This document shows positions 54 to 31,436 of a DNA stretch of 64,000 bases, in pieces. Numbering within the stretch: position 1 is the first letter of the stretch; the number at the start of each line of letters is the position of its first letter. The DNA is taken from contig CBDUYR010000006.1 in the NCBI GenBank assembly GCA_965371515.1, positions 1 to 64,000 on the forward strand. Reading direction: 5' to 3'. The position numbers and the translations under genes are program-made. The notes under the pieces were generated by a model. That model was not told where the DNA came from. It was given only the letters and a program-made list of their open reading frames with translations, and did not search any database. Source of the DNA: an uncultured bacterium. Lineage in GTDB: Bacteria > Krumholzibacteriota > Krumholzibacteriia > Krumholzibacteriales > Krumholzibacteriaceae.

Positions 54-3000
54 TTACCTCAGAAGTACCATCTTTTGGGTGGTCCCGAGCTGACGTCCAT
101 CGGAGAGCACCCTGTAGAAGTAGATGCCGCTCGCTACCGTACTGCCCCTGCTGTTGCTGCCGTTCCAGGGGATCGACACGGGACCGTTCGAGCAGTAGCC
201 TCTGTCGATAGCATTGACAAGAGCGCCGCGCACGTCATAGATACGCAGCTCCACGCTTCCGGGCCTGTCGAGATTGAACCGGACCTCGGTGCTGGGATTG
301 AATGGGTTCGGCCAGGCGCGCATATCGAGAGAAACCGGCTCGTCGGCCTCTGCTACGACTTCACGCGCACCCTCTGCGTTGGCCACCGGCATGACAGGAG
401 GAGGGACTATGTCGACCCATAGTCCTACCCCGATCTCGGGATCGTCGGGATCATCGCTGGATATAGTCAACGCCTCATAGTGTGTGCCGGCAGGTGCACT
501 CGTCAGGAGCTTCACGGCCACCTCGTACGACTCACCCGGATCGACAGTGAATGGTGTGGCCGTTACCACTTCAAACATACTTGGAAGACTCGACTCGAGA
601 TCCGTCACCGTCAGCGTATGTCCCTCGCAGCCGATGTTTTGAACATCGAACATCATTGTAATCGGTTTGAAATAGTACAGGAGGGTGCCCCAGTCGAGTT
701 TATTGACCGATGTAGTGATATGGCTTGCCGGAAGCACCGTCATGCTGAGCGGGAATTCGACCACGTCGTTTTCAGGATCGGTTGACCTGATCGTCAAAAT
801 GCCGGCCAGATCCTCGTTGCAGTAGCCACGTGCATCGAAGGTGACTTCAACGACCAGCGAATCACCAGGCGCGATCGACTCGACCGATGTCGAAAGTGTT
901 GCCCACTCGGGGATCCCGAAATATCCAAGTATGACATTGAGCTGATAACCGCCGTTGTTGTATATCGTCATGGTCTCCTGATGGACGGCTTCTGTATACA
1001 CGAGAGCGCTGAGCTCGGTTGGAACAAGGACCATCTCGGGCGGCGTTACACCCTCTCCTGAGAGTTGGATTACGGTCGTCTCCGGACCCTCGTCGCCGAA
1101 TGTGTTGATGCTCAGCGTCCCGTAGATCTCTCCGTAGCTCGACGGGGCGAAGGTTACCTGCACCGGTATCGTTGCCTCGGCAGGGACCAACGTCAGTTGA
1201 GTAACAGAGAAGTCCGGATTGTCGAGCACCAGACTCATGATCGGGAGAGACTCGCAACCGAGGTTGGTGATGAAGACTAAAGCCTCCTCATTGCTGCCTA
1301 CGATAACCGGCCCGTAGTTGATGTAGGCTGGATCCACGGCCATCTTCGCGTCCCCGGAGACGGTGAGCTCGAGCGGCAGCGTGACGAGGGGATCGCTCTC
1401 GTCGTTGCTCGCGACCTCGACGTACGCCGAGTTCTCGCCGCAGGGAAAGTCGTCGACTCCGACAAAGAGTATTACCGTCCTGCTGTCCCCCGGCTGAATC
1501 GATCCGGAGGTGGGATAGCAGGTGATCGAAGGGAACTCGGCGGGAATAACGACCTCATAGTCCAGTGTGCCCACGCCGTTGTTCTCGATCTCGAAGGGAA
1601 GCTGGTTCAGGATCCACTTCTCCGTTGCTGCAACGATCGTTGTCGGATCCAGCGCTATCTCGGGGGGACCAAGGGTCGTGAAACCCTTGACCTTCGTGAT
1701 GCCTGACACGTTATCGCTGTAATCGCCGCCGAGCCGATAGTAGTAGGAGCCCCATTCATCGAAAACGCGGAAAGCTATGTAATAAGTTGTCCCCTGTTCG
1801 AGGCCGTCGATGACGAAGGTCTCCTTGGTGCCGGCTTGCTGAGGATCGGGGACCGGTTCGATCAACGCAGCCTGCTCGAACTGCTTAGTGTTACGTATGG
1901 GGATGGTCGCGTAGCGGAACTCGTATTCGCTCGCCGTTCCGTCACCGCCGTCGTCGCCCGTGGCCGTCCATTCGAGCTCTATCCAGTTGCTCGCCACTTC
2001 CTTTACCGTCACCCTGCGGATCGTTGCTGGAGCGGCGTAATCGGGATCGGCAATGGCCAGGAATGCGTTGACCCTGCCCCCGGAAACGCACTTGTCCTTG
2101 AGAGATTCGAGAGGGTCGACCATATCGAGCAATCTTGCCTTGAAATCGATGCCGCTTTCAGGGCCTGCCTTGGCAATCATCAGAGCCAGAACTCCACTGA
2201 TATAAGGTGTGGAACAAGAGGTGCCCACTAAACTAGTATAACCGCCGCCCGGTTCGCAGACCCTCCCGGTGATGGGTGCTCCGAGATCGACAGATATAGC
2301 CCCATAGTTAAAGACCTGATCATCTGCTACATTCGTTCCTGTTACACCAATGATCTTATCGTACTCAAAACAAACCGGATACCTTGGGTAGATATCAAGA
2401 TCATAGCTCTGATTATGAGCCGCACAAGCCATATAGATTCCGGCCGCGTCCGCCTGCAGGCACGCCAGAGAGAATAGATCCAGATCTTCTGTTGTGCCAA
2501 AACTCATGTTCAGGACATCTACATCCATACTTATAGCATATTCTATCGCCTCTATAATGTGGCTCGTCGGCCAATCAGCAGACGCGGCGGCAACATCCAA
2601 TGGCATTATACTTACTTCCCAGCACACACCGGAGACACCGATACCGTTATCCGTGTCAGCGCCAATGATGCTGGCACACATAGTCCCATGACCAGAGTCA
2701 TCTACCGGGTGAGGAGAATTGTTCCAGAAATTCCATCCATGGAAATCATCGACATATCCGTTGTCGTCGTCGTCGATATTGTTGCCCGGTATTTCTCCGG
2801 GATTATAATAAATGTTGTCCTCTAAATCGGGATGATAAATATCTACGCCGGAATCGATCACGCCGACGATGACCGTCTTTGAACCACGATGTATGTCCCA
2901 GGCATGCACGGCACGAATATCGATGTTGGGCAGATAGGGCGGCTCTAACGTATTGTGCAGCGGCCACGAAGGAAATAGCGGGTCATTCGGTATCTCCGCC

Positions 3001-3317
3001 GGCTCGAAATAGACATTGGGCTCGATGAACTCGATGTGGGGGTGTCCCCTGAACCGCGAAAGCGCCTCTTCGACCGTCATGCCGTTCAGCCGGTGGTGTG
3101 AGGCACCAATGAACTCGAACTCCTTTATCTTCGTAGCGCCCATCTCCCTCAGCACTCCGTTGCGCTGAGTCGTTGTCGCTGACTCCTTGAACTTGATAAG
3201 GACCTCGCCAGGCGCGTAGCGCGCCTCATCGGCGAAAGCGGGGAACATCGCCCCTATAAGCAGAAATCCAAGGATACAGAAAACAAGAGCTCGAAACTGA
3301 AACCTCATCGATAACAT
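54..3317 (-). CDS. Secreted S8 (subtilisin-like) serine peptidase with FN3/Ig-like domains and C-terminal FlgD-Ig sorting domain
   Basis: Signal peptide; PGEVLIKFK propeptide; triad motifs VIDSG, HGTMCA, GTSCSTP; C-terminal WPNPFNP...GIYFYR; SD GGGGGAGG upstream. Confidence 0.93.
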   Translation of the reverse strand: MLSMRFQFRALVFCILGFLLIGAMFPAFADEARYAPGEVLIKFKESATTTQRNGVLREMGATKIKEFEFIGASHHRLNGMTVEEALSRFRGHPHIEFIEPNVYFEPAEIPNDPLFPSWPLHNTLEPPYLPNIDIRAVHAWDIHRGSKTVIVGVIDSGVDIYHPDLEDNIYYNPGEIPGNNIDDDDNGYVDDFHGWNFWNNSPHPVDDSGHGTMCASIIGADTDNGIGVSGVCWEVSIMPLDVAAASADWPTSHIIEAIEYAISMDVDVLNMSFGTTEDLDLFSLACLQADAAGIYMACAAHNQSYDLDIYPRYPVCFEYDKIIGVTGTNVADDQVFNYGAISVDLGAPITGRVCEPGGGYTSLVGTSCSTPYISGVLALMIAKAGPESGIDFKARLLDMVDPLESLKDKCVSGGRVNAFLAIADPDYAAPATIRRVTVKEVASNWIELEWTATGDDGGDGTASEYEFRYATIPIRNTKQFEQAALIEPVPDPQQAGTKETFVIDGLEQGTTYYIAFRVFDEWGSYYYRLGGDYSDNVSGITKVKGFTTLGPPEIALDPTTIVAATEKWILNQLPFEIENNGVGTLDYEVVIPAEFPSITCYPTSGSIQPGDSRTVILFVGVDDFPCGENSAYVEVASNDESDPLVTLPLELTVSGDAKMAVDPAYINYGPVIVGSNEEALVFITNLGCESLPIMSLVLDNPDFSVTQLTLVPAEATIPVQVTFAPSSYGEIYGTLSINTFGDEGPETTVIQLSGEGVTPPEMVLVPTELSALVYTEAVHQETMTIYNNGGYQLNVILGYFGIPEWATLSTSVESIAPGDSLVVEVTFDARGYCNEDLAGILTIRSTDPENDVVEFPLSMTVLPASHITTSVNKLDWGTLLYYFKPITMMFDVQNIGCEGHTLTVTDLESSLPSMFEVVTATPFTVDPGESYEVAVKLLTSAPAGTHYEALTISSDDPDDPEIGVGLWVDIVPPPVMPVANAEGAREVVAEADEPVSLDMRAWPNPFNPSTEVRFNLDRPGSVELRIYDVRGALVNAIDRGYCSNGPVSIPWNGSNSRGSTVASGIYFYRVLSDGRQLGTTQKMVLLR

Positions 3318-3623: not shown

Positions 3624-3698
3624 GGAAATCCGCGCCCACGCCCCCGGCCGGGAGTGTGAGGCCATCTCCGAACGTATTGAAAACAGGGGGGTTGTGCT

Positions 3699-5108
3699 AT
3701 TTTTACCTCTATCACGAAACTCAAGTCCGAGATCAAGCGGCAGGGCATCAAGCTCGTCGACCTCAAGTTCACCGATTTTCTGGGCCGCTGGCACCGCCTG
3801 ACCGTCCCGGCATCGAGCGCCGACAACAGGCTCTTCTCAGTCGGCCTCGGATTTGATGGCTCGAACTTCGCCGGCCTCAAGACTGTCGAACTCGGCGACC
3901 TCTCCCTCGTACCCGACCTTTCGACGGGATTCGTCGATCCGTTCAGCGCCATCCCGACTGTCTGCTTCATCTGCGACATCGTCGAGGCCGACTCGAAGAA
4001 ACCCTTCCCCCGCGACCCGAGACATATCGCCCGTAAGGCTGAGGCGTTCCTCAAGAAGACCGCCATCGCCGACCTCTCGCTTTGGGGCCCCGAGTTCGAG
4101 TACTACGTATTCGACGAGGTACTCGTCGACACCTCGAACCTCAGCTTCGGCTACGAGATCGCCCCGTGCGAGGGCGAGAACAAGGGTAGTTTCGGTCTGA
4201 AGACGCACGGCGGCTATCACGCGCTGCCCCCCGAGGACAAGCTCGCCGGGATTCGCGACCGCACCGTCGTCCTGCTCGAGGAAGCGGGCATCGGGATCAA
4301 GTACCACCATCACGAGGTGGGCGGTCACGGCCAGGGTGAGATCGAGGTCGAGTTTGCGCCGCTGACAAAGATGGGCGACATCTCGATGATCGTTAAGTAT
4401 TTTGTGCGCATGGCCGCCGACGAGGCGGGGATGATCGCGACATTCATGCCCAAGCCGATACACAACGAGGCGGGCAACGGGATGCACTTTCACCAGCACC
4501 TGTTCAAGAAGGGCAAGCCGCTGTTCTACAGCAAGTCGGGTTATGCCGGGCTTAGCAGGACGGCGCTTCAGTACATCGCCGGACTGCTCCACCACTCCCC
4601 CGCCCTGCTCGCGCTGACAAACCCAAGCACGAACTCGTACAAGCGTCTGGTGCCCGGCTTCGAGGCGCCGGTCAACGCCTTCTTCTCGCTCGGCAACAGG
4701 TCGGCCGCTATCAGGATCCCGAAATACGCGTCGTCACCGGAGAAGAAGAGGCTCGAGTTCAGGCCCCCCGACGCGACGGGGAACATCTACCTCTCGATGG
4801 CCGCGCAGCTGATGGCCGGCATCGACGGCATCCGCAACAAGCTCGACCCGAAAGAACTGGGATTCGGACCGCTCGAGGTAAACGTGTTCGAGATGACCGA
4901 CAAGGAGCGCGGGAAGATCAAGTCACTGCCCGGCTCGCTCTCCGAGGCGCTGCACGCGCTGGAGAAGGACTACGAGTTCCTCCTGCAGGGCGACGTCTTC
5001 GACGCGACGATGATAGAGGACTGGATCGCATTGAAATTCGACAAGGACGTAATGCCGGTGCGAAACCGCACCCATCCGCTCGAGGTCCAGCTCTACCTCG
5101 ACTGCTGA
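3699..5108 (+). CDS. glnA: Glutamine synthetase type I (469 aa, apparent ATT start)
   Basis: Frame of the 4317..5108 ORF stays open back to TGA at 3678-3680; it encodes IKLVDLKFTDFLGRWH, GFDGS, RDPR, GPEFEYY, HHHEV, FMPKP, NGMHFHQ, NSYKRLVPGFEAP, NRSAAIRIP, RLEFRPPD; SD AGGGGGG lies 7 nt before ATT TTT ACC. Confidence 0.93.
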   Translation: MFTSITKLKSEIKRQGIKLVDLKFTDFLGRWHRLTVPASSADNRLFSVGLGFDGSNFAGLKTVELGDLSLVPDLSTGFVDPFSAIPTVCFICDIVEADSKKPFPRDPRHIARKAEAFLKKTAIADLSLWGPEFEYYVFDEVLVDTSNLSFGYEIAPCEGENKGSFGLKTHGGYHALPPEDKLAGIRDRTVVLLEEAGIGIKYHHHEVGGHGQGEIEVEFAPLTKMGDISMIVKYFVRMAADEAGMIATFMPKPIHNEAGNGMHFHQHLFKKGKPLFYSKSGYAGLSRTALQYIAGLLHHSPALLALTNPSTNSYKRLVPGFEAPVNAFFSLGNRSAAIRIPKYASSPEKKRLEFRPPDATGNIYLSMAAQLMAGIDGIRNKLDPKELGFGPLEVNVFEMTDKERGKIKSLPGSLSEALHALEKDYEFLLQGDVFDATMIEDWIALKFDKDVMPVRNRTHPLEVQLYLDC

Positions 5109-5130: not shown

Positions 5131-7047
5131 GTGACCGAATTCCGACAACTTGGCGAGATGACGCTCGAGGACTACCAGGCGATTGGGATGAAGAGCGGCC
5201 TCGAGATACACCAGCAGCTCGACACCGAGAAGAAGCTTTTCTGCCGCTGCCCCATCCTTCCCTACAGCGATAAAGTCGACGCGCAGATCCTCCGGCACAT
5301 GCGGCCCACACTCTCCGAGCTGGGCGAGTACGACGGCACCGCCCTGATGGAGTTCAAGACAAAGAAAAACATCACCTACCAGATAAACAAGAAAACGGTC
5401 TGCACGTACGAGATGGACGACACGCCGCCTTTCGAGCTCAACCAGCAGGCGCTCGAGATCGCGCTCGAGATCACGATGCTGCTCAACTGCAAGCTCGTCA
5501 GCGAGATTCACATCGCCCGCAAGCAGTACCTCGACGGATCGATCCCGACCGGATTCCAGCGCACGACTATACTCGGCGTCGACGGCTGGATACCGTACGG
5601 CGACAGGAAGATCGGCATCATCCAGCTCGGACTCGAGGAAGACGCCTGCCGAGAGGTCAGCGATATCGGCCACGAACGGATTTACATGACCGACCGCCTC
5701 GGCATCCCCCTTATAGAGACAGTCACATATCCCGAGATGCGCACCCCGCAGGAGGTCGCCGACGTCGCCCAGGTCATCAGGTACCTCACCCGCTCGACGG
5801 GCAAGGTCCGCACCGGCATCGGGCGGACGAGACAGGACGTAAACGTGTCCGTCACTGGCGGACGAAGGGTCGAGATCAAGGGCGTTCCGCGCATCCCGAT
5901 GATCCCGCTGCTCGTCCATAACGAGGCGTTCAGGCAGCTCGCGCTTCTCGACATAAAGAAGACCCTCAACGACCGGGGTGTCACAGAAGAGACATTCGAG
6001 TATGACTCGGTAGAGATCACCGACATCTTCAAGGGAACACAGTACTACCCCGTCGCCAAGGCGCTGAAAGACAGCCTCGAGGTCCATGCGGTCGTACTGC
6101 GCGGCTTTCGCGGCATCCTGTCGACGAAGATACAACCGGAGACGACATTCTCGAAGGAGATTTCGGACCGCGTGCGCGTCGTCGCCTGCCTCGACAGACT
6201 GCCCAACATCGCTCACTCGGACAGCGAGGGCGAGACATTCTCGAGCGCCGAGTGGACGAAGATAAAAAAGCATGCGAAAATGGGCAACGACGACGTTATC
6301 GTGATCGTCTGGGGCGGCGAGGACGACGTCAGGATGGGTGTCAGTGAGATCGCGCTGCGCGCGAAGGAAGCGGCGATCGGCGTCCCCGACGAGACGCGCC
6401 AGGCGCTGGCCGACGGGACGAACGGATTCGAAAGGATTCTGCCCGGCCCGAACAGGATGTATCCCGATACCGATCTGCCGCCGATCGCGATCACCGACGA
6501 GCGCATAGAGCGTATCAGATCGACCCTGGCAGAGCTCTCATGGGACAGACAGAAACGGTACGAGGGTATGGGGCTCGACAAGGAAACGGCGCGCAGAATG
6601 AGCATCTCGAAGCGCAGGGATGCCTTCGACGAGGCAGTATCGAAAACAAAGTACGAGCCGGCCACAGTGGCAGAACTGCTGCTCGGCGGACTGCGGAGAC
6701 TGCGACGACGAGACGGCGTGCAGGAATGCAGCGACGAGGTATTCGTCCAGACTCTGGTCGAGGCCGGTGAAAAGAAGCTGCCGAAAACAAGCCTGGAGGT
6801 GCTTCTCGCGAAGACGTGCGGCCCCGACGGAATAGATCCGTCTAAGACAGCAACCGCGTTCGAGATCCTCGACGCGAAGGCGCTGGAGAAAAAGATGAAA
6901 AAGTTCGCGGGCTCCCTCGAGCTCCCCGACATAGAACGAGATAAACTGGTAAGGTACCTGACCGGCCGGATGGCCACCGAGTTCAGGGGATATATCACGG
7001 GCCGTGAGGCATTCGATTTCGCGGGCCGTTTCGTCGCGTCTGAATAA
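5131..7047 (+). CDS. gatE: Glu-tRNA(Gln) amidotransferase subunit E (archaeal-type)
   Basis: GLEIHQQLDT.KKLFCRCP, RKQYLDGSIPTGFQRT, LEEDACR, DRLGIPLIE, RQDVNVS, GVPDETR, RMYPDTDLPP; 638 aa with the central AspRS-like insertion that GatB lacks. Confidence 0.92.
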   Translation: MTEFRQLGEMTLEDYQAIGMKSGLEIHQQLDTEKKLFCRCPILPYSDKVDAQILRHMRPTLSELGEYDGTALMEFKTKKNITYQINKKTVCTYEMDDTPPFELNQQALEIALEITMLLNCKLVSEIHIARKQYLDGSIPTGFQRTTILGVDGWIPYGDRKIGIIQLGLEEDACREVSDIGHERIYMTDRLGIPLIETVTYPEMRTPQEVADVAQVIRYLTRSTGKVRTGIGRTRQDVNVSVTGGRRVEIKGVPRIPMIPLLVHNEAFRQLALLDIKKTLNDRGVTEETFEYDSVEITDIFKGTQYYPVAKALKDSLEVHAVVLRGFRGILSTKIQPETTFSKEISDRVRVVACLDRLPNIAHSDSEGETFSSAEWTKIKKHAKMGNDDVIVIVWGGEDDVRMGVSEIALRAKEAAIGVPDETRQALADGTNGFERILPGPNRMYPDTDLPPIAITDERIERIRSTLAELSWDRQKRYEGMGLDKETARRMSISKRRDAFDEAVSKTKYEPATVAELLLGGLRRLRRRDGVQECSDEVFVQTLVEAGEKKLPKTSLEVLLAKTCGPDGIDPSKTATAFEILDAKALEKKMKKFAGSLELPDIERDKLVRYLTGRMATEFRGYITGREAFDFAGRFVASE

Positions 7048-7062
7048 ACGGCGCGAAGGAAG

Positions 7063-8457
7063 GTGATCGCACTGGGCAGCGATATCTACAAGGGATACAG
7101 TGGCGAAGCGCTGGAATGCCTGAAGAAGTTCGAGGCCGGTGTCTGGTTCGACGTAGAGGTCAACTCGACACGCGGCAATTTCAGGGGGATCATACTCCCC
7201 AGATCCGAGACCGCCGACAACAATCACATAGTGCTCAAGCTCGACACCGGCTACAACGTCGGCCTGGCAGTCGGCACGATCGAGACGATGACAACGCACG
7301 GCAAGCGTGAGGCACATTACAAGATCCCCGAGAAGGAATTCCCTTTCGACCCGAAGAAACCGACGGTCAAGCTCCTCGGCACAGGTGGCACGATCGCCTC
7401 GAGGCTCGACTACCGCACCGGCGCCGTTATCCCGGCGTTCACCCCGGGAGAGCTCTACGGCTCCGTTCCAGAACTAGCCGACATCTGCAATCTGGAGACG
7501 GAGAAGATGTACGGCGTATTCAGCGAGAACATGGGCCCCGAACAGTGGATAGGAACAGCCGAGAAGATCGGCGAGGAGATCAAGAAGGGTGTCAGCGGAG
7601 TCGTGATAGGCCACGGCACCGACACGATGCACCACACCGCGGCGATACTCTCGTTCATGGTGCAGGACTCGCCGGTACCGATCGTCATGGTCGGTTCCCA
7701 GCGCTCCAGCGACCGCCCGTCGAGCGATGCGGCCTTGAATCTGATACATGCGACGCGCACCGCCGCCTACAGCGACTTCGCCGAGGTGATGGTCTGCATG
7801 TTCGGCCCGACGAGCGACCAGTACGCCCTGCTCCACAGGGGAACACGCGTACGCAAGATGCACTCGTCGTACAGGTCTACATTCAGGACGATCGGCGACA
7901 TCCCCCTGGCGATGGTCGACCGCAAGAAATTCACGCCGCTGCGCGACGACATCAAGAAGCGCCGCAGCGACAGGAACGTGACGATCAACACGGCATTCGA
8001 CGACCGCATCTCGATCGTGTACTACTACCCCGCCATGAAACCGGACATCATCGATTCGCTGATCGACAACGGGTACAAGGGAATCGTTATCGCAGGTACT
8101 GGACTGGGGCATGTCAACAAGCCCCTCTACCCATCGCTCAAAAGAGCGTTCGACGAGGGGATCCATGTATACATGGCCGTTCAGACGCTCTGGGGGTACG
8201 TGCAGATGTACGTATACGACACGGGGCGCGACATGATGGATCTCGGTGTCATACCCGGCGCCAACATGCTGCCCGAGGTAGCGTACATGAAGCTCGGATG
8301 GGCGCTCGGCCAGAGCCAGGATCGCGAAGAAGTGAAGAAGATCATGCTGACCCCGATCGCAGGCGAAATCACCGAGAGGGAGCCACATAATGGCTACCTG
8401 ATCTACCAGGGCGGCATTCCCGAGGTCGAAGAGTTCATCAGCCAGTACAAAAAATAG
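7063..8457 (+). CDS. gatD: Glu-tRNA(Gln) amidotransferase subunit D (asparaginase-like glutaminase)
   Basis: GatD-specific N-domain (GIILPR...HIVLKLDTGYNVG) plus GTGGTIASRLDYRTGAV, HGTDTM, GSQRSSDRPSSDA, RKMHS. Confidence 0.93.
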   Translation: MIALGSDIYKGYSGEALECLKKFEAGVWFDVEVNSTRGNFRGIILPRSETADNNHIVLKLDTGYNVGLAVGTIETMTTHGKREAHYKIPEKEFPFDPKKPTVKLLGTGGTIASRLDYRTGAVIPAFTPGELYGSVPELADICNLETEKMYGVFSENMGPEQWIGTAEKIGEEIKKGVSGVVIGHGTDTMHHTAAILSFMVQDSPVPIVMVGSQRSSDRPSSDAALNLIHATRTAAYSDFAEVMVCMFGPTSDQYALLHRGTRVRKMHSSYRSTFRTIGDIPLAMVDRKKFTPLRDDIKKRRSDRNVTINTAFDDRISIVYYYPAMKPDIIDSLIDNGYKGIVIAGTGLGHVNKPLYPSLKRAFDEGIHVYMAVQTLWGYVQMYVYDTGRDMMDLGVIPGANMLPEVAYMKLGWALGQSQDREEVKKIMLTPIAGEITEREPHNGYLIYQGGIPEVEEFISQYKK

Positions 8458-8470
8458 GTACAGGCGGCAT

Positions 8471-10066
8471 ATGGATCGAAACGATTCTTCAGATCAGGGC
8501 AACGGGCTGCGCAGCGGCCCGGTAGACCTATCTACCTCAAAGGTTATCTCCGACACGTTCTTCGTCTCAGCCTCGAAGATAGCCATCACCCTGATCAAGC
8601 CGATCCGCAGTGTGATTCTCGGCAGGCTCCTCGGCCCGGCCCTCTACGGGCTGCTCAACATTCCTGTATCGTATGTCCAGCTCCTCGTGATCTTCTCGAA
8701 CATCGGCTTCAACACCGCGATTGTTAAGCTGATCCCCGAGTATCTGCAGAAGGGGCGCAAAGACATGGCCGCGATGATCTACAACGCGGCCGTATTCCTC
8801 ACCCTTACCCTCTCAACCTTATGGTGCATCCTGCTTATCGTGTTCGCCCCGTGGATCGCCGAAAACATCGCCCATCAGCCTGAAGCTGCCGGGCCGATAA
8901 GGATATACGCCCTGATCATCCCGTTCCTCGCCCTCAACGCCTTCTACGCGGTCGCGTACCTCGCAATCCAGCGCGGCAAGCTGCGGGCCGGCATCACGCT
9001 GGTACACGGCCTGCTCAACGTCGCCCTCCCGATTGCGGCAGTCCTCTGGCGCCGGGATGTCGTGGCGGTCATAGCTGGATTTCTCACCGCAGAAGTGATC
9101 GGCGCGCTGCTCTTTACAATCTACTTCCACCGGAAGGCGATCCGGCACTGGACATCCGGATCGGGCCCACTCGTTCAGGGGATCAGGGAGGTATCCGGAT
9201 TCGGATTCCTCTTCTTCTTCGCGAACCTCGGGTGGAACCTGATCAACACCGTCGACCGCATCATGGTCAAGTACTACCTCCCCGCCGAGCAGCTGGGATT
9301 CTACGCGATGGCGGCGATCGTTATAACAGCGCTGAGCATCATCTCCTCTACGGCGGGAACGGCGCTCATCCCCTCTCTCACAGCGACCCGCGTGTCCGGC
9401 GACATGAAGGCCTTCCGCAGGCAGATAAGAAGCACGGCGCGGATCGCCCTGATGGTTATCGCGCCTGTCGTCATGATGATCTGGTCGCTGGCCGGCGACA
9501 CGATCTCGATCGTGCTGCCGAAGTTTCTTCCATCCGCGGGCATTGTAAAGATCCTGGTCTTCATCGGGATCGCCGACATATTCTGCCGGACAGCCTGGGC
9601 CTCCCTCGCGGCATACGCCAAGGGCGGCCTGTCGGCGAGCGCCTACCTCTTTGCCGCTATACTTAACATAGTTTTGAATATGGTTCTCATTCCGCGGATG
9701 GGAATAACGGGCGCGGCTGTCGCGACCCTCGCCACCTTCATAGTCCTGGCGATTATACTGCAGACTATGATGTGGTCGATCTCGAGGACGAGGATATCGC
9801 CTCTCTCTTTGATCCACCCCGCTCTTCTCGCATCGGTCTATCCCCTGCTGTCGCTGGCAACCGGCTCCCTTCCCTCCTGGGCCCGTGTCGTAATAGTACT
9901 GGTCGTCGGGTCGGCCGCATACAAGCTCCTCGCCGCTCTCACAGGGCTCATCAGAAAAAGCGACCTCGAGACAGCCGCCGCAACGCTGCAGCAGCGAAGG
10001 CACGTGCCCCACGTCAGGCTCGCCCTGATAGGAATCTCCTTCCTCGACAGGATAACGAGGCGCTAG
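8471..10066 (+). CDS. MOP-family polysaccharide flippase (Wzx-like)
   Basis: About 14 hydrophobic segments; LGRLLGPALYG, DRIMVKYYLP..LGFYA, LIPRMGITGAAVAT. Confidence 0.85.
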   Translation: MDRNDSSDQGNGLRSGPVDLSTSKVISDTFFVSASKIAITLIKPIRSVILGRLLGPALYGLLNIPVSYVQLLVIFSNIGFNTAIVKLIPEYLQKGRKDMAAMIYNAAVFLTLTLSTLWCILLIVFAPWIAENIAHQPEAAGPIRIYALIIPFLALNAFYAVAYLAIQRGKLRAGITLVHGLLNVALPIAAVLWRRDVVAVIAGFLTAEVIGALLFTIYFHRKAIRHWTSGSGPLVQGIREVSGFGFLFFFANLGWNLINTVDRIMVKYYLPAEQLGFYAMAAIVITALSIISSTAGTALIPSLTATRVSGDMKAFRRQIRSTARIALMVIAPVVMMIWSLAGDTISIVLPKFLPSAGIVKILVFIGIADIFCRTAWASLAAYAKGGLSASAYLFAAILNIVLNMVLIPRMGITGAAVATLATFIVLAIILQTMMWSISRTRISPLSLIHPALLASVYPLLSLATGSLPSWARVVIVLVVGSAAYKLLAALTGLIRKSDLETAAATLQQRRHVPHVRLALIGISFLDRITRR

Positions 10067-10109: not shown

Positions 10110-10835
10110 TTATGGTTTTAATAGAATATAAAATACTGCCATGTGAAGGAATCCAAATCGCTTCTCAAGCATTTGATAGTTCATCTTGTGAATAAATTCT
10201 TCAGTGATGAACTTCTCTAGTCTTCTATAGTCAAAACCTAAATGTGGCCCATACCCTTGTTTCTGCGGATCTCTAAATATATCAATGCTTTTGTTAAACA
10301 TGAGATGCGAAAAATATTTAAACTTTGATTGGTTCTGGAAAAAATCCTCGTAAGGGTTTCGACGCACTAACTGTCTGCCTAAGAATTTCACTAGTCCAGG
10401 CATTCCTATCTCATTCGGAATACCAATTACCAATATCCCCCCGCTTGCCAAATGATTATTTAGGTTAATCAGTGCTTCCTTATATGAACCTACATGCTCC
10501 AGTGTTTCAAAGCATGTTACCAATTCAAATTCTTCTTTGGGCCGCTCAATATTATTAAGGTTGTACTTAATAAATTCTGTCGATGGAAGATTCTTCTCCC
10601 TGCCCAGATTTAACAATTCTTCCTTATGGTCATATCCAACGATTCTCGAGAAATCACAATTGCCACTCCGGATCATATATTCGATGATATATCCATTTGA
10701 ACAACCAAAATCCGCCCAGCTTGTCTTAGTAAATGCTCCGTGATGTAAAAGTATTCTTAGAATAGATTTTAATCTAGCCCTGTGGGAGAATGATACAAAT
10801 CCCCTTCCCTTATATGAGTTCTCATGGATAATCAT
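10110..10835 (-). CDS. Class I SAM-dependent methyltransferase (AT-rich)
   Basis: DFGCSNG motif I, CFETLEHV, LASGGILVIGIPN. Confidence 0.85.
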   Translation of the reverse strand: MIIHENSYKGRGFVSFSHRARLKSILRILLHHGAFTKTSWADFGCSNGYIIEYMIRSGNCDFSRIVGYDHKEELLNLGREKNLPSTEFIKYNLNNIERPKEEFELVTCFETLEHVGSYKEALINLNNHLASGGILVIGIPNEIGMPGLVKFLGRQLVRRNPYEDFFQNQSKFKYFSHLMFNKSIDIFRDPQKQGYGPHLGFDYRRLEKFITEEFIHKMNYQMLEKRFGFLHMAVFYILLKP

Positions 10836-27121: not shown

Positions 27122-28012
27122 TCATCGTCTTGTGTAGTAGAAAAATGTCCATCTCAACTCAAGGTACTCTTCGGGGAAATTATCAGGCAGCGGGCGGAAA
27201 GGCGAAGACTTTTCCACTGCCGTCACACTTGTCTCCATCAGCGTCTTGTGTCCGTTATAATCGATGACGTCGAGTCCGGTCATCGTCCCGTCCGGCCACA
27301 CCCTGAAAATCAGCGTAGTCTCCCCCCTGATACCTCCCATGTATGTGAATATCGCAGGCGGAAAGATGTTCGATTTGAGTTTCCTCTTCATGTGGAAGAT
27401 GTAGGAGGCGTAATCCCATTCGTACGTGTTGAGCGATATGCTTCCCTTGGCATCGGCTCCGGTCAATCTCTGCTCGTAGTCGAGATCGTCGGTGAACCGC
27501 CGCTGCGGTGAAGGCGGACCGACCTGTAACTGCCTCATGGAGGATTCTCCGTCTCTCACGTCCTGAACCCTGCGTCGATCCGAATTGAAATACGAGCCCG
27601 CCCAATCGAGTATAGGGTTCCATGGCTCCGATTCAGCGTCATCCTGCTGCTGATTCCGCTGATCCTCGGCCTGAGCCTGTTGGACCCCGCCGGCATCGGG
27701 ATCGCCGGCGAATACCCGGTGCGGGACTTCACCATCGCTGTAAGCTTCTCCCAGTTCCAGGTCACCCTCATGTTCGTCCCTAGCGAGAGCATTCTTGTCC
27801 GAGAGCAGGTGCGCATTCTCCGGCTCCTGCCGAATGGCGTCGTCCGGGGTCTCCACCAGCTCGAAGATGAGCGGGGTTGAGGCCGCGGGTTCAGACTCGC
27901 TCTTGTCTGGGAAAAGGTCTATCCGGGACAGGGGACGATAAACGATCAGGATGATCAGATGAACGAGCACCGATACGGCAATGGCGATTCGTTGTGACCG
28001 GTATTTAAACAG
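27122..28012 (-). CDS. TonB-like energy transducer (start uncertain, probably CTG at 28012)
   Basis: N-terminal anchor RIAIAVSVLVHLIIL with S-x3-H; TonB_C-like C-terminus (PFRPLP); precedes exbB/exbD. Confidence 0.75.
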   Translation of the reverse strand: MFKYRSQRIAIAVSVLVHLIILIVYRPLSRIDLFPDKSESEPAASTPLIFELVETPDDAIRQEPENAHLLSDKNALARDEHEGDLELGEAYSDGEVPHRVFAGDPDAGGVQQAQAEDQRNQQQDDAESEPWNPILDWAGSYFNSDRRRVQDVRDGESSMRQLQVGPPSPQRRFTDDLDYEQRLTGADAKGSISLNTYEWDYASYIFHMKRKLKSNIFPPAIFTYMGGIRGETTLIFRVWPDGTMTGLDVIDYNGHKTLMETSVTAVEKSSPFRPLPDNFPEEYLELRWTFFYYTRR

Positions 28013-28491
28013 ATCGATAACCTCTTGAAAATGCTATGCCTGTAACAATCCATAATATAGATATATCGTCGCAGTATAACACTATTAAGTTACAACCGTT
28101 CTCGATGTTCCAGTTTTTTCGCCTGTCGCCGGCGGAAGAGACGGAACGCCTTTACTTTCAACATACTGCCGGCTCAAGGCGACATACGTCTGGCAACTCC
28201 AGGTCCTCTCCGCCCCGAACCGTTCCATATGTTCAAAAAAGTGTTCCACCTGTTCCAAAGTGTCCCATCGTTCGTGAGACAATAATCTAAAAGACTTACA
28301 GCGAAAGTGTTCAAAAATGTGTTCTACGCGATACAACTGCGATACACAAAGATTCGCTTCTGGAACAGTCTGATTTCAGAAAATTACTATCGGGAATCAA
28401 AAATCGAATCTCCTGTATTCATTAATTCAGAAGGGATTACAAATGCGCCATGAAAATATCAAATGTCAGGGATAAGTCCAGTTCATGTGAA

Positions 28492-28507
28492 TGGAATCGA
28501 TAGTGCA
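28492..28507 (+). promoter_or_regulatory. Candidate sigma54 promoter
   Basis: TGGAATCGATAGTGCA with GG-N10-GC spacing; TGT-N10-ACA at 28320-28335 upstream. Confidence 0.5.
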
Positions 28508-28646
28508 ATATAAAACGATTTAGATCCTGCACTGATCCGAAGAGCTGCAACGTCAGGGGATATTTCAATGAAAGGAGGGTGGCTTTCTAACAGGCGCTTG
28601 CAGCATTAGAATCTGGGAACGCTTACATTTCAACAGATAAAGGAGA

Positions 28647-29513
28647 ATGATGATGTTCCATAGAAAGCATATCAAGAAAGCGCTACTGTTTTTAATCATT
28701 GTTGCATTCTTCAATCTCGTTTCATGTACTGAACAGGGTATTGTGAATACAGACAAAAAGGAGGTTGCTTCAAATGAAACGATAGATATTGAAAACGACA
28801 TCGAAATATCAGTTGATCCAGAAATGGCAGGAATATTACATAATGAGATTCTATCAGAATTCAATAATAGGCATACTATACTGAGTGGTCCACTTGATGA
28901 AGATACTTTCATAAGATATTATCAGGAATCAGTAAATACAGTTTTTAAAAGAAATGGGATTCGGATTATCGTTTCTAAAGATGAAATTCGATCTGATTTA
29001 TTAATGCTGCGCGAATTTACTGAAAGTGGTGTTTTTAACTTCTTCTCACCTCCACGAGAAACAAATATAGAACCACTCATTTCACATGGAATAGTTACGG
29101 GTAAATTGACACAAGCTGAATCTGAATATATCAGAAAACTATTTAATTCTTTAAAAAATGGCGTTCTTTTTTCAAAAGATAATGCACAGGATCAATTATT
29201 CAGTTCAGAATTTGAATCAATCGAGGATATAGACAAAGATATGTTGATTTCTATAGAATGTATTGCTCAGAGCACCTCTGAATTCTGGAGTGACTTTCTG
29301 ATCCATTCACTGCCGGATGGAGAAATATATATCCTGTATAAGGATGATGAGTACGTATGGCGTAAAACGTGCGACATATGTGGTGGAATAATGGGGATAT
29401 GGGCAGGAGGGCCTGGCGGCGCCATTATATTGGGAGGATTAGCTTCAATAGCTTTTCATGTAGTATATAATGATGGACAAGGCTGGTGGGATACAGTTAC
29501 AGGTTGGTTTTAA
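28647..29513 (+). CDS. AT-rich lipoprotein with Gly-rich hydrophobic C-terminus (candidate toxin/bacteriocin precursor)
   Basis: SD AAGGAG; lipobox LVSC; C-terminal GGIMGIWAGGPGGAIILGGLASIAF...GWWDTVTGWF. Confidence 0.75.
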   Translation: MMMFHRKHIKKALLFLIIVAFFNLVSCTEQGIVNTDKKEVASNETIDIENDIEISVDPEMAGILHNEILSEFNNRHTILSGPLDEDTFIRYYQESVNTVFKRNGIRIIVSKDEIRSDLLMLREFTESGVFNFFSPPRETNIEPLISHGIVTGKLTQAESEYIRKLFNSLKNGVLFSKDNAQDQLFSSEFESIEDIDKDMLISIECIAQSTSEFWSDFLIHSLPDGEIYILYKDDEYVWRKTCDICGGIMGIWAGGPGGAIILGGLASIAFHVVYNDGQGWWDTVTGWF

Positions 29514-29532
29514 AAGGTATTGTCTTGATTGT

Positions 29533-29563
29533 GGGAAGAAATTAAAAAGGTTTTCTTCCCACT
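29533..29563 (+). terminator. Hairpin after the lipoprotein gene
   Basis: GTGGGAAGAAA...TTTCTTCCCAC inverted repeat followed by TTT. Confidence 0.6.
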
Positions 29564-29592
29564 TTCGGGACACAACTAAAAAGGAGTAGCTG

Positions 29593-29847
29593 ATGCTTAG
29601 TGATTATAAAGAAATAATAGGAATCATACTAGTACACGTAGTTATTTATGCTATTTATAGAATTATATCATGGAAATTCATCAAGCTGAGTTCAAAAGGT
29701 GTATTTGGCCTGTATTTAATACTCATGCCTGCATTCATGTTGAACATAAGGTCAAGCTCAGGAGCATCAGAGATTTATTCTGCGGCTATTACAGTTGTTG
29801 GAGTATTTATTTATTCTGCCTATGCAGGGAAAAAATCTTCAGGTTGA
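29593..29847 (+). CDS. Small 3-TM membrane protein (candidate immunity protein)
   Basis: SD AAGGAG, 84 aa, three hydrophobic segments, same AT-rich composition as the upstream gene. Confidence 0.7.
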   Translation: MLSDYKEIIGIILVHVVIYAIYRIISWKFIKLSSKGVFGLYLILMPAFMLNIRSSSGASEIYSAAITVVGVFIYSAYAGKKSSG

Positions 29848-29861
29848 CTTTAGTTGCAACA

Positions 29862-30098
29862 CACTGCCGCCTCGGGGCGACATACATCTGTAAACGCCAG
29901 GGGATCTCCTGACTAGAAGATACCGATACTCAGGCCGGCGGAGCGAGGCTCTCGAGAACTTCGAGCTCTGTTTCAGTGATTATCCCGATTACCACTACGC
30001 CCTCTACCAGGTCGGAAAGACAAATCTTATCGGAGAAGTCGATCTCGCCCGGGCACAGGGAAGCGAAGAAGCTCTACAAGAAACTCAAGCGAAAGTAA
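29862..30098 (+). pseudogene. Degraded remnant of a TPR-like gene
   Basis: Fragments in different frames: HCRLGATY, ALENFELCFSDYPDYHYALYQVGKT, EAKKLYKKLKRK*. Confidence 0.35.
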
Positions 30099-30108
30099 TC
30101 GCTGAGGC

Positions 30109-30711
30109 CTATTTCTCGACCGATCTCCTGATCGCCCGCAGCTCTTCGAGCATCGACGTCATCACGTCACGCTGAGGTGATTCTCGAACAGTATCATTCT
30201 CGGCCGTCGTCGGCGACATCGCGCCTCTGAATGCGCGGAGTTTCTTCACGACATCGTCGTAGATCCCATTTACGTCTTCGAGCCCGACGAGGCTCTGCTC
30301 TGCGCCGGTTGTGCCGCTCATACCCGCAGTCTGGATGTTGAGCGTGCCTATGTCGAACATGAACCTGTCGAGGATCCCCCTCTTGATCGAGATGTTTGTG
30401 ACGGTCCTGTAAGGCACGTGCTTAACCGACTTGGTGACTATACCGACGCGCAGGATCACCTCGTCATCCTGGATCTCGTAGCTGAGACTCCTGTAATAGA
30501 ATACAGACAGAATTGCGGCTATGATCCAGAAAAGGCCAGCGATCAGCGCCGTGTATATCGTAATCTCGATCGTAACGTGGGCTCCCTCGTCGATCCCGAC
30601 GAGCAGACCGAAAAGGTACCCCACAAGCACCGTCAGCAGGGCTATGATCGTGTAGGTAACCCACAGCTTTCTCAGATAACTTTTACCCGGCTTGATATGC
30701 AATGTCTGCAT
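30109..30711 (-). CDS. Bacterial PH-domain (bPH_2/YdbS-like) membrane protein
   Basis: Two TM segments, then YEIQDDEVILRVG...VPYRTVTN...GTLNIQTAG; SD GGGAGG. Confidence 0.85.
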   Translation of the reverse strand: MQTLHIKPGKSYLRKLWVTYTIIALLTVLVGYLFGLLVGIDEGAHVTIEITIYTALIAGLFWIIAAILSVFYYRSLSYEIQDDEVILRVGIVTKSVKHVPYRTVTNISIKRGILDRFMFDIGTLNIQTAGMSGTTGAEQSLVGLEDVNGIYDDVVKKLRAFRGAMSPTTAENDTVRESPQRDVMTSMLEELRAIRRSVEK

Positions 30712-30798
30712 GACGACCTCCCCTATGTTCTTCACTCTGATCGTGATTCTCGCAGTTAATACATTCGATTGCACGGATTTATTCGAAATACATTTTGA

Positions 30799-30827
30799 TT
30801 GACTGGTATCACATCAGGCGCAATAAT
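30799..30827 (+). promoter_or_regulatory. sigma70-like promoter
   Basis: TTGACT-N17-AATAAT. Confidence 0.45.
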
Positions 30828-30863
30828 CGTTTTGAATTTCAGCTTTTACAGGAGGTCGTTCGT

Positions 30864-31436
30864 ATGCGCAGATTCTTACTGGTCTTTTTTGCTCTTGTAC
30901 TGCTTTCAGGCGTCGCCTTTGCCCAGCAGCCCGACAGTACCGCTTATGAGGCCCCGGAGACACCACCGCCCGCGAAATCCAGCTCCGGACCCAGTAAGAT
31001 CTATTACGGAGGCACCCTCGGCTTCAGCTTCGGCGACTACACGCGCTTCAGCATCGCGCCTCTGGTCGGATACAGGCTCGCGAAGAGGTGGTCGGTCGGA
31101 GGCAAAGCAGTGTATGAGTATATCAAGGACAAGCGGTATGCAGAGGACATAACCTCGCACAACTACGGGGGCAGCCTCTTCGCGCGCTTCCGCCCCCATC
31201 CCCGTTTCTACCTGCACGGCGAATACGCCTACATGAGCTACGAGTGGCAGACAGCGAATCTGACCTCAGAACGAAATTGGGTCCCCTTCCTCCTTCTCGG
31301 AGGAGGGTACGTACAGCCGATATCACCCCGCGCCTCCCTCTTCGTCGAGGTGCTGTTCGACGTGCTGAATGATGACGGTTCCCCATACGAGGAATGGAAT
31401 CCCTGGATCAGCATAGGCGTCGCGGCCGGATTCTAA
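30864..31436 (+). CDS. Outer membrane beta-barrel protein
   Basis: SD AGGAGG, signal peptide, IAPLVGYR, terminal Phe. Confidence 0.8.
   Translation: MRRFLLVFFALVLLSGVAFAQQPDSTAYEAPETPPPAKSSSGPSKIYYGGTLGFSFGDYTRFSIAPLVGYRLAKRWSVGGKAVYEYIKDKRYAEDITSHNYGGSLFARFRPHPRFYLHGEYAYMSYEWQTANLTSERNWVPFLLLGGGYVQPISPRASLFVEVLFDVLNDDGSPYEEWNPWISIGVAAGF

Follow-up and report, generated by a model that had tools for sequence, protein, structure and literature searches.

The window, a stretch of 64,000 nucleotides (contig CBDUYR010000006.1, positions 1 to 64,000) from an uncultured bacterium of the family Krumholzibacteriaceae, contains the adjacent genes gatE (5131..7047, plus strand, 638 amino acids (aa)), for a tRNA-dependent kinase/amidase subunit, and gatD (7063..8457, plus strand, 464 aa), for a glutaminase subunit, with 15 nt between them. 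Judged by sequence, the pair is a true GatE and GatD, neither GatB nor a plain asparaginase. We put the chance at roughly one half (0.5) that the two proteins form a working GatDE that serves the host as an amidotransferase for Glu-tRNA(Gln), acting on bacterial tRNA, with GatCAB left to make Asn. GatDE is described as restricted to archaea in PMC2811023 (2009), PMC8762117, and PMC9499178 (2022).

The identity of both proteins was supported by curated family models. GatE scored 536 bits with NF003107 (cut-off 456) and 465 with TIGR00134 (cut-off 320); all six GatB models stayed under their own cut-offs, and the protein, unlike GatB, carries the insertion domain. GatD scored 519 bits with NF003217 (cut-off 310) and 517 with TIGR02153 (cut-off 324) and matched the GatD_N domain (PF18195). 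It also exceeded the cut-off of the broad type I asparaginase subfamily model TIGR00519 (388 vs. 260.5), as is expected of any GatD. The archaeal structures 1ZQ1 (P. abyssi) and 2D6F (M. thermautotrophicus) were the top PDB matches of both chains. Residues T110, T186, D187, and K265 of GatD occupy the asparaginase catalytic positions, and each is conserved in at least 90% of 65 aligned GatD sequences. The chemistry of the Thr nucleophile and the Thr-Lys-Asp triad is given in PMC2330236, which also names His15, Glu157, and Glu184 of M. thermautotrophicus GatE as Mg ligands; H27, E169, and E196 of our GatE align with these. The initial annotation had claimed adjacent, full-length gatE and gatD with intact catalytic motifs, and both the cut-offs and the residue alignment bore this out.

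It had also claimed subunit-specific domains. Pfam reported GatD_N, but at E ≤ 1e-3 neither the insertion (GAD) nor the Yqey tail of GatE, and these two were recovered by an AlphaFold model instead. The model (mean predicted local distance difference test score, pLDDT, 94) aligned with 2D6F_D over 511 residues (Z 40.7, root-mean-square deviation (rmsd) 3.4) and with GatB 3IP4_B as far as residue 638. Residues 286-417 (5986..6381, plus strand) form the GatE-specific AspRS-like insertion by alignment to 1ZQ1 and 2D6F, and in the model they match the fold of AspRS 1C0A (Z 14.8, rmsd 2.9, 121 residues aligned). The tail (6928..7044, plus strand) is divergent: outside its own subclade, identity drops to about 14%. 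It is modelled as helices (pLDDT about 91) that align to the GatB tail, and the GXXAXGX motif of a YqeY-like tail is kept only in part. The two halves of the cradle are 85-88% identical inside the subclade and 68-76% over the bacterial clade, and no variation was seen in its arginines or metal ligands. By sequence and model, the active sites of both subunits and the insertion domain are intact, and a helical tail is present. The protein pair resembles archaeal GatDE in its two subunits, GatD_N, asparaginase active site, passed equivalog cut-offs, cradle with metal ligands, insertion, helical domain, and modelled tail domain. It differs in its bacterial host with U1-A72 tRNA-Gln, bacterial GluRSs, GlnRS, and GatCAB, and in its divergent tail, changed acceptor-stem loop, and operon with glnA. 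Bacterial GatCAB shares the homologous kinase subunit and the overall chemistry, but it has an amidase-type GatA plus GatC and no insertion, and in the host it is encoded separately (contig C33).

Archaeal GatDE reads the first base pair A1-U72 of its tRNA and bacterial GatCAB reads U1-A72 (PMC2330236, PMC2811023). Both tRNA-Gln of the host begin with U1-A72 and not with the archaeal pair. A search for an A1-U72 substrate in the host genome ended with tRNA-Trp, the only one of the 37 tRNAs found that carries this pair; at default settings, ARAGORN called no tRNA-Asn, -His, -Cys, or -Ile. A tRNA-Sec is present (C12:40847-40944). With tRNA-Gln lacking A1-U72, a GatDE acting on Glu-tRNA(Gln) must have been retargeted.

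Changes in GatE would fit such retargeting. The cradle loop of residues 227-236 (5809..5838, plus strand) faces the first pair of the tRNA, being the counterpart of the 3-10 turn with which GatB reads that pair (PMC2811023). At position 233, 76 of 84 sequences outside the bacterial clade have Ile, and the 130 inside mostly have Ala, Thr, or Gly. Gly217 is found in 83/84 outside vs. 17/130 inside, and Gln253, present in 81/84 outside, is mostly Pro or Ser in the bacterial clade (Pro in the query). Gln240 of M. thermautotrophicus, the counterpart of P253, may contact A1-U72. A related group labelled Asgard retains the archaeal loop, Gly217, and Gln253. From these sequence comparisons, we infer that the loop may have been reshaped for U1-A72.

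The tRNA-charging genes of the host comprise gatC-gatA-gatB (C33), GlnRS (C36; TIGR00440, 745 bits), two bacterial GluRS (C22 and C28), AspRS, and AsnRS. An archaeal GluRS was not found in the genome, nor was AsnA, and PF00733 (AsnB) gave only three weak partial matches. A genome check for glnS, gatCAB, and a non-discriminating GluRS had been proposed; the first two turned up, the archaeal non-discriminating GluRS did not. Together with the U1-A72 pair of tRNA-Gln, this gene set does not agree with the earlier proposal of an archaeal route to Gln-tRNA.

The two GluRS paralogs (C22, L003:5123-6568; C28, L004:3315-4883) are about 40% identical. The C28 enzyme has about 520 aa and an insertion, and its gene adjoins tRNA-Gln(CTG) and tRNA-Glu(CTC). 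It carries Arg at the Arg358-equivalent position and Ser at a second anticodon-domain position, where the C22 enzyme has Asn and Gly. The mapping of Arg358 was tested on T. thermophilus 1G59, and that to H. pylori Gly417 is by analogy. The same split recurred in all eight other class members examined, with Arg in one paralog and Asn, Asp, or His plus Gly in the other. The C22 enzyme thus resembles GluRS2 of H. pylori (PMC2978374, PMC2777447); this sequence pattern is not diagnostic (PMC3927822) and is only a lead. Duplicated GluRS with split anticodon-domain residues are also a feature of the GluRS1/GluRS2 systems of H. pylori and A. ferrooxidans. GlnRS-containing bacteria such as Bdellovibrio and Thermus have retained GatCAB beside AsnRS and lack an Asn synthetase. 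All of these have one type of amidotransferase, whereas the host adds GatDE.

In the proposed mechanism, the GluRS2-like synthetase from C22 would load Glu onto tRNA-Gln(U1-A72), which the remodelled acceptor-stem loop of GatE would admit. With Gln from a presumably co-transcribed GlnA, or Asn, as the donor, GatD would release ammonia, and GatE would phosphorylate the tRNA-bound Glu and then amidate it. GatCAB would mainly make Asn-tRNA, because no Asn synthetase was found, as the Bdellovibrio enzyme does (PMC4206432). The result would be an archaeal-style split between two amidotransferases, with GlnRS as a patchy, dispensable extra in the order. In archaea, the GatE insertion blocks the non-discriminating AspRS and favors GluRS binding (PMC2943598), and its retention here favors GluRS over AspRS as the partner. 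Also in favor of this mechanism are the intact catalytic residues, the conserved cradle halves, the low dN/dS values, and, among the 34 genomes of the order, a gatE in 32 and two or more gltX matches in all vs. a glnS in only 20.

Several observations weigh against this use of GatDE. The host GlnRS and GatCAB could each supply Gln-tRNA, and as of 2014 there was no known bacterium in which both routes to Gln-tRNA were in use (PMC4206432). A pattern search for tRNA-Gln in 54 gatE-bearing genomes gave 75 A72 matches in 47 genomes and U72 in only two; ARAGORN called 29 of 30 fetched A72 loci tRNA-Gln, every one starting with U. The GatE of two genomes with A1-U72 tRNA-Gln has not reverted to the archaeal loop, which weakens a one-to-one link between loop and base pair. 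The genomes G007 and G025 have an AsnB-family gene. The second-position Gly is also frequent in single GluRSs and is found in GluRS1 of T. maritima, and the duplicate GluRS of T. maritima is called non-functional in PMC3927822. None of the GlnRS-less genomes of families f2 and f3 has to rely on GatDE, for all of them also have gatB. Among gatE genomes outside the phylum, glnS was over the cut-off in 42 of 50 and partial in one more, and GatDE is thus redundant in most cases; most of the single GluRSs checked there keep Arg, leaving no evident source of Glu-tRNA(Gln).

The two A1-U72 cases are gatE-bearing bacteria with a tRNA-Gln(TTG) called by ARAGORN (G050, L113:1479-1550; G075, L114:1134-1208).

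The pattern of charging genes in the relatives bears on whether GatDE could instead act as an occasional rescue enzyme, repairing Glu-tRNA(Gln) that a leaky GluRS has mischarged, with most of the charging left to GlnRS. In the order, glnS was found in 20 of 34 genomes (0/8 in f3 and 0/1 in f2), and at least two gltX matches in all 34; asnS was over the cut-off in 39 of 41 relatives. The 14 GlnRS-less genomes of the order keep or probably keep GatDE, and bacteria with GlnRS but without amidotransferase are common (PMC3927822). A rescue role would agree with the glnS over the cut-off in 19 of the 25 gatB-less gatE genomes outside the phylum, but on balance we consider it very unlikely.

The survey outside the phylum covered 50 gatE genomes (50 of 72 loci). 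A gatB was present in 25 (23 full, two broken or partial), an AsnRS-like match in 48 (by score class and length only), and an AsnB-family gene in 37. Neither gatB nor glnS was found in five: G081 (which has gatA), G050 (which also lacks GluRS), G078 (1.8 Mb), G043, and G079. The last two combine GatDE with two GluRS, and glnS, gatB, and gatA were not found. They suggest that GatDE may be the sole Gln-tRNA route in some bacteria; both are draft genomes that may be incomplete, and no tRNA-Gln was matched in G079, which again counts against this use. G043, a Marinimicrobia-labelled draft (L037, L187, L190) that also has AsnA and AsnRS, is a candidate for a GatDE-only Gln-tRNA route.

The same survey bears on the proposal that bacterial GatDE is an Asp-tRNA(Asn) or dual amidotransferase that makes asparagine on tRNA. 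This would account for the co-occurrence of GatDE and GlnRS, and bacterial tRNA-Asn also has U1-A72 (PMC2811023, PMC4206432). Four genomes (G076, a complete chromosome, and G083, G088, and G089) lack gatB, AsnA, and an over-cut-off AsnB, so that no other Asn route is seen in them, but they could be Asn auxotrophs. Further points speak against the proposal: the host has GatCAB available for the job, no tRNA-Asn is found in its assembly, and 37 of the 50 gatE genomes have an AsnB-family gene, although some of these may be polysaccharide amidotransferases. The host AspRS lacks the His/Gly marks of a non-discriminating enzyme. The insertion that prevents binding of the non-discriminating AspRS in archaea is retained (PMC2943598). 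We therefore regard Asn formation by GatDE as improbable. In G076 (L087), GatDE, GlnRS, and an AsnRS-like gene are present and gatA, gatB, AsnA, and AsnB were not found; this bacterium is either an Asn auxotroph or its GatDE makes Asn.

The gene upstream of gatE links the pair to glutamine synthesis. glnA (3699..5108, plus strand), for a type I glutamine synthetase of 469 aa (TIGR00653, 482 bits, cut-off 429), ends 22 nt before gatE and would be the first gene of an operon. Of 19 loci from related genomes, 18 had it immediately 5' of gatE, and the other was a contig end; this points to a conserved glnA-gatE-gatD operon in the relatives. Outside the Krumholzibacteria, glnA was directly 5' of gatE in 0 of 72 loci, some of them with short flanks, and within 8 kb in two. 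A scan for promoters and terminators gave 4 and 8 sites, uninformative next to the 2.3 and 5.2 expected, and the window had no Rfam match, thus no known glnA riboswitch. A second glutamine synthetase-family gene (C24:34366-35379, L145) is not linked to gatDE.

This operon could also mean that GatDE has left translation and serves, co-expressed with GlnA, as an amidotransferase of nitrogen metabolism with a non-tRNA acceptor, or as a regulated glutaminase/asparaginase. GatDE is redundant with GlnRS in most hosts, positions 217 and 253 near the tRNA path are changed, and the tail is poorly conserved. Against this stand the persisting helical domain, tail fold, and tail motif remnant, the invariant cradle arginines and metal ligands, and the absence of upstream glnA and of any other common neighbor across phyla. 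We consider a role outside translation doubtful and prefer the amidation of Glu-tRNA(Gln).

The start of glnA is unusual. In frame, ATG, GTG, and TTG are absent from the upstream stop to codon 207 (first 206 codons). An ATT at 3699-3701 follows a Shine-Dalgarno site (3686-3692; together 3686..3701, plus strand) and an in-frame stop, and is the likely start. Wherever the 5' end was visible (18 distinct loci), the codon at this position was ATT (8) or ATC (10) and never ATG, with GGAGG or GGGGG upstream and a protein of 468-469 aa; three loci cut at the 5' end, one without the anchor motif, and four duplicates were dropped. From these alignments, a conserved AUU/AUC start of glnA appears probable. 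A crude genome scan gave 20 Shine-Dalgarno-plus-ATT/ATC candidates in 4315 frames, and conservation was checked for glnA alone. infC has an AUU start codon. Initiation would be led by a Shine-Dalgarno site in both genes; unlike in infC, the start is on glnA and ATT and ATC alternate across an order. Our search of titles and abstracts found no paper on an AUU start of glnA.

The contig is bacterial and no chimera. The genome (G000) is 99.6% complete with 0.03% contamination. The GC content of gatE/gatD is 0.60/0.59 and that at third codon positions (GC3) 0.80/0.82, vs. a GC3 of 0.71-0.83 for the aminoacyl-tRNA synthetase and gatA/gatB genes of the genome. In tetranucleotide distance, the locus ranks at the 68th percentile among 832 segments of the genome. 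Neighboring genes recur in close relatives out to about 16.7 kb, with a shared synteny of about 12 kb. Compared with two genomes of the same genus, the ratio of nonsynonymous to synonymous substitution rates (dN/dS) was 0.12-0.14 for gatE and 0.06-0.07 for gatD, which indicates purifying selection on both sequences. Among the matches listed, the named record nearest to the query (89% identity) carries the label Krumholzibacteriota; its dN/dS values equal those of the same-genus genome G005, with which we take it to be identical. Nothing beyond the textbook expectation speaks for an artefact such as a chimeric contig, archaeal contamination, a recent transfer, or decaying genes; synteny, host-like composition, purifying selection, and presence across the phylum (gatD in 101 of 125 high-quality genomes, E ≤ 1e-90) leave it almost no probability, and a chimeric contig or recent transfer was excluded. 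The earlier statement of a bacterial context held, as did that of an unremarkable base composition, and the concern about a chimeric contig was settled.

GatDE is widespread in the phylum. gatE was over the cut-off in 33 of 41 related genomes and present in 32 of 34 of the order (28 over the cut-off, four fragments at contig ends), and gatD was over the cut-off in 138 of 201 genomes sampled from Krumholzibacteriota. In a control set of 14 genomes, four archaea matched gatD and the rest did not. At least 303 of 600 candidate stretches were confirmed relatives. Relatives of 45-65% identity are labelled, among the matches listed, Ignavibacteria, Calditrichota, Marinimicrobia, Cloacimonetes, Bacteroidota, Planctomycetota, Aminicenantes, and others. 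The bacterial GatDE at this locus is an ordinary member of a large clade and no rare oddity.

Phylogeny was done for GatE only. In a FastTree analysis of 215 rows, all 88 locus-derived GatE fell inside one clade of 130 members (support 1.0); most protein rows have no taxon, and "bacterial clade" is a working name. With IQ-TREE on 49 rows (a subset of 89, 40 left out), this clade had 100/100 support and stood in GatE, apart from GatB, as the proposed GatE/GatB tree check had asked. Its sister (100/98) was a group whose named members are mostly Heimdallarchaeota/Asgard, a label from the database names of some members only; a quick tree of 89 rows united both with support 96. The root hangs on the long GatB branch, and archaeal GatE were sampled from matches to the query and P0038 and are thus biased. 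The Asgard group (e.g., TET29438.1) shares cradle signatures with the bacterial clade, such as Tyr133, Pro139, and Asp446, but differs from the host GatE in having the archaeal loop, Gly217, and Gln253 and a tail motif of canonical form. Tyr133 and Pro139 are also common to GatB and may therefore be ancestral. The GatE UCE36696.1 (P0266), labelled Thermoplasmata archaeon and on a 5.16-Mb contig, lies inside the bacterial clade near its base; it may be a back-transfer, a donor relative, or a mislabel.

An old transfer from archaea to bacteria had been proposed. Old age stood, because most of the phylum carries the genes, and the nearest outsiders are Asgard-labelled; the direction did not, since an approximately unbiased (AU) test rejected neither a monophyletic archaeal GatE nor ancient vertical retention in bacteria (p-AU 0.256). 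From the trees, we rather favor a transfer; deep retention in bacteria is a lesser but serious option. A fuller scenario, which we put forward only tentatively, assumes an Asgard-related donor and rewiring of GatDE to U1-A72. GluRS2 and GatDE would make Gln-tRNA and GatCAB Asn-tRNA, with GlnRS alongside in some lineages and the amide supplied by a GlnA throttled by its AUU/AUC start; bacteria like G043 may need GatDE alone.

In NCBI, the name GatE is already attached to at least one protein of bacterial origin (MBN1551266.1). Our literature search by title and abstract found no paper on bacterial GatDE, although published genome tables or supplements could already record gatDE, and the excerpt of PMC9976931 has nothing on it. 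New here are the conserved glnA-gatE-gatD operon, the ATT/ATC start of glnA, and the second, GluRS2-like synthetase. Interest is tempered because databases label these proteins already and the locus is an ordinary one of a large clade. Reviews explain the archaea-only status by co-evolution with A1-U72 tRNA-Gln, a rule that a bacterial clade facing U1-A72 would break. The clade offers natural variants for studying first-pair recognition by GatE and the reason that cells maintain two amidotransferases, the latter called an open question in PMC2330236. In metagenomes, neither GatD nor GatE can safely be taken as an archaeal marker, and GlnRS present with gatCAB absent is no longer proof of a discriminating GluRS. 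Gene callers limited to ATG, GTG, and TTG will truncate a glnA that starts with ATT or ATC.

No third partner gene was common across phyla in 100 loci. An apparent GatE-GatD fusion in G034 (a 1172-aa frame) proved to be two genes in different frames. The gene 13 nt 3' of gatD (8471..10066, plus strand) encodes a MOP/Wzx-type flippase-like membrane protein (PF01943, 107 bits). Among 99 loci compared, it adjoins gatD in five others, which all belong to close Krumholzibacteria, and it is probably a local passenger. Low-GC patches lie at 10110-10835 (minus strand, GC 0.46), which holds a methyltransferase not in related loci, and at about 28000-31000 (GC 0.39), vs. 0.57. At 54-3317 (minus strand), the window encodes a subtilase (S8) of 1087 aa with Ig-like repeats and a C-terminal FlgD-Ig sorting-type domain.

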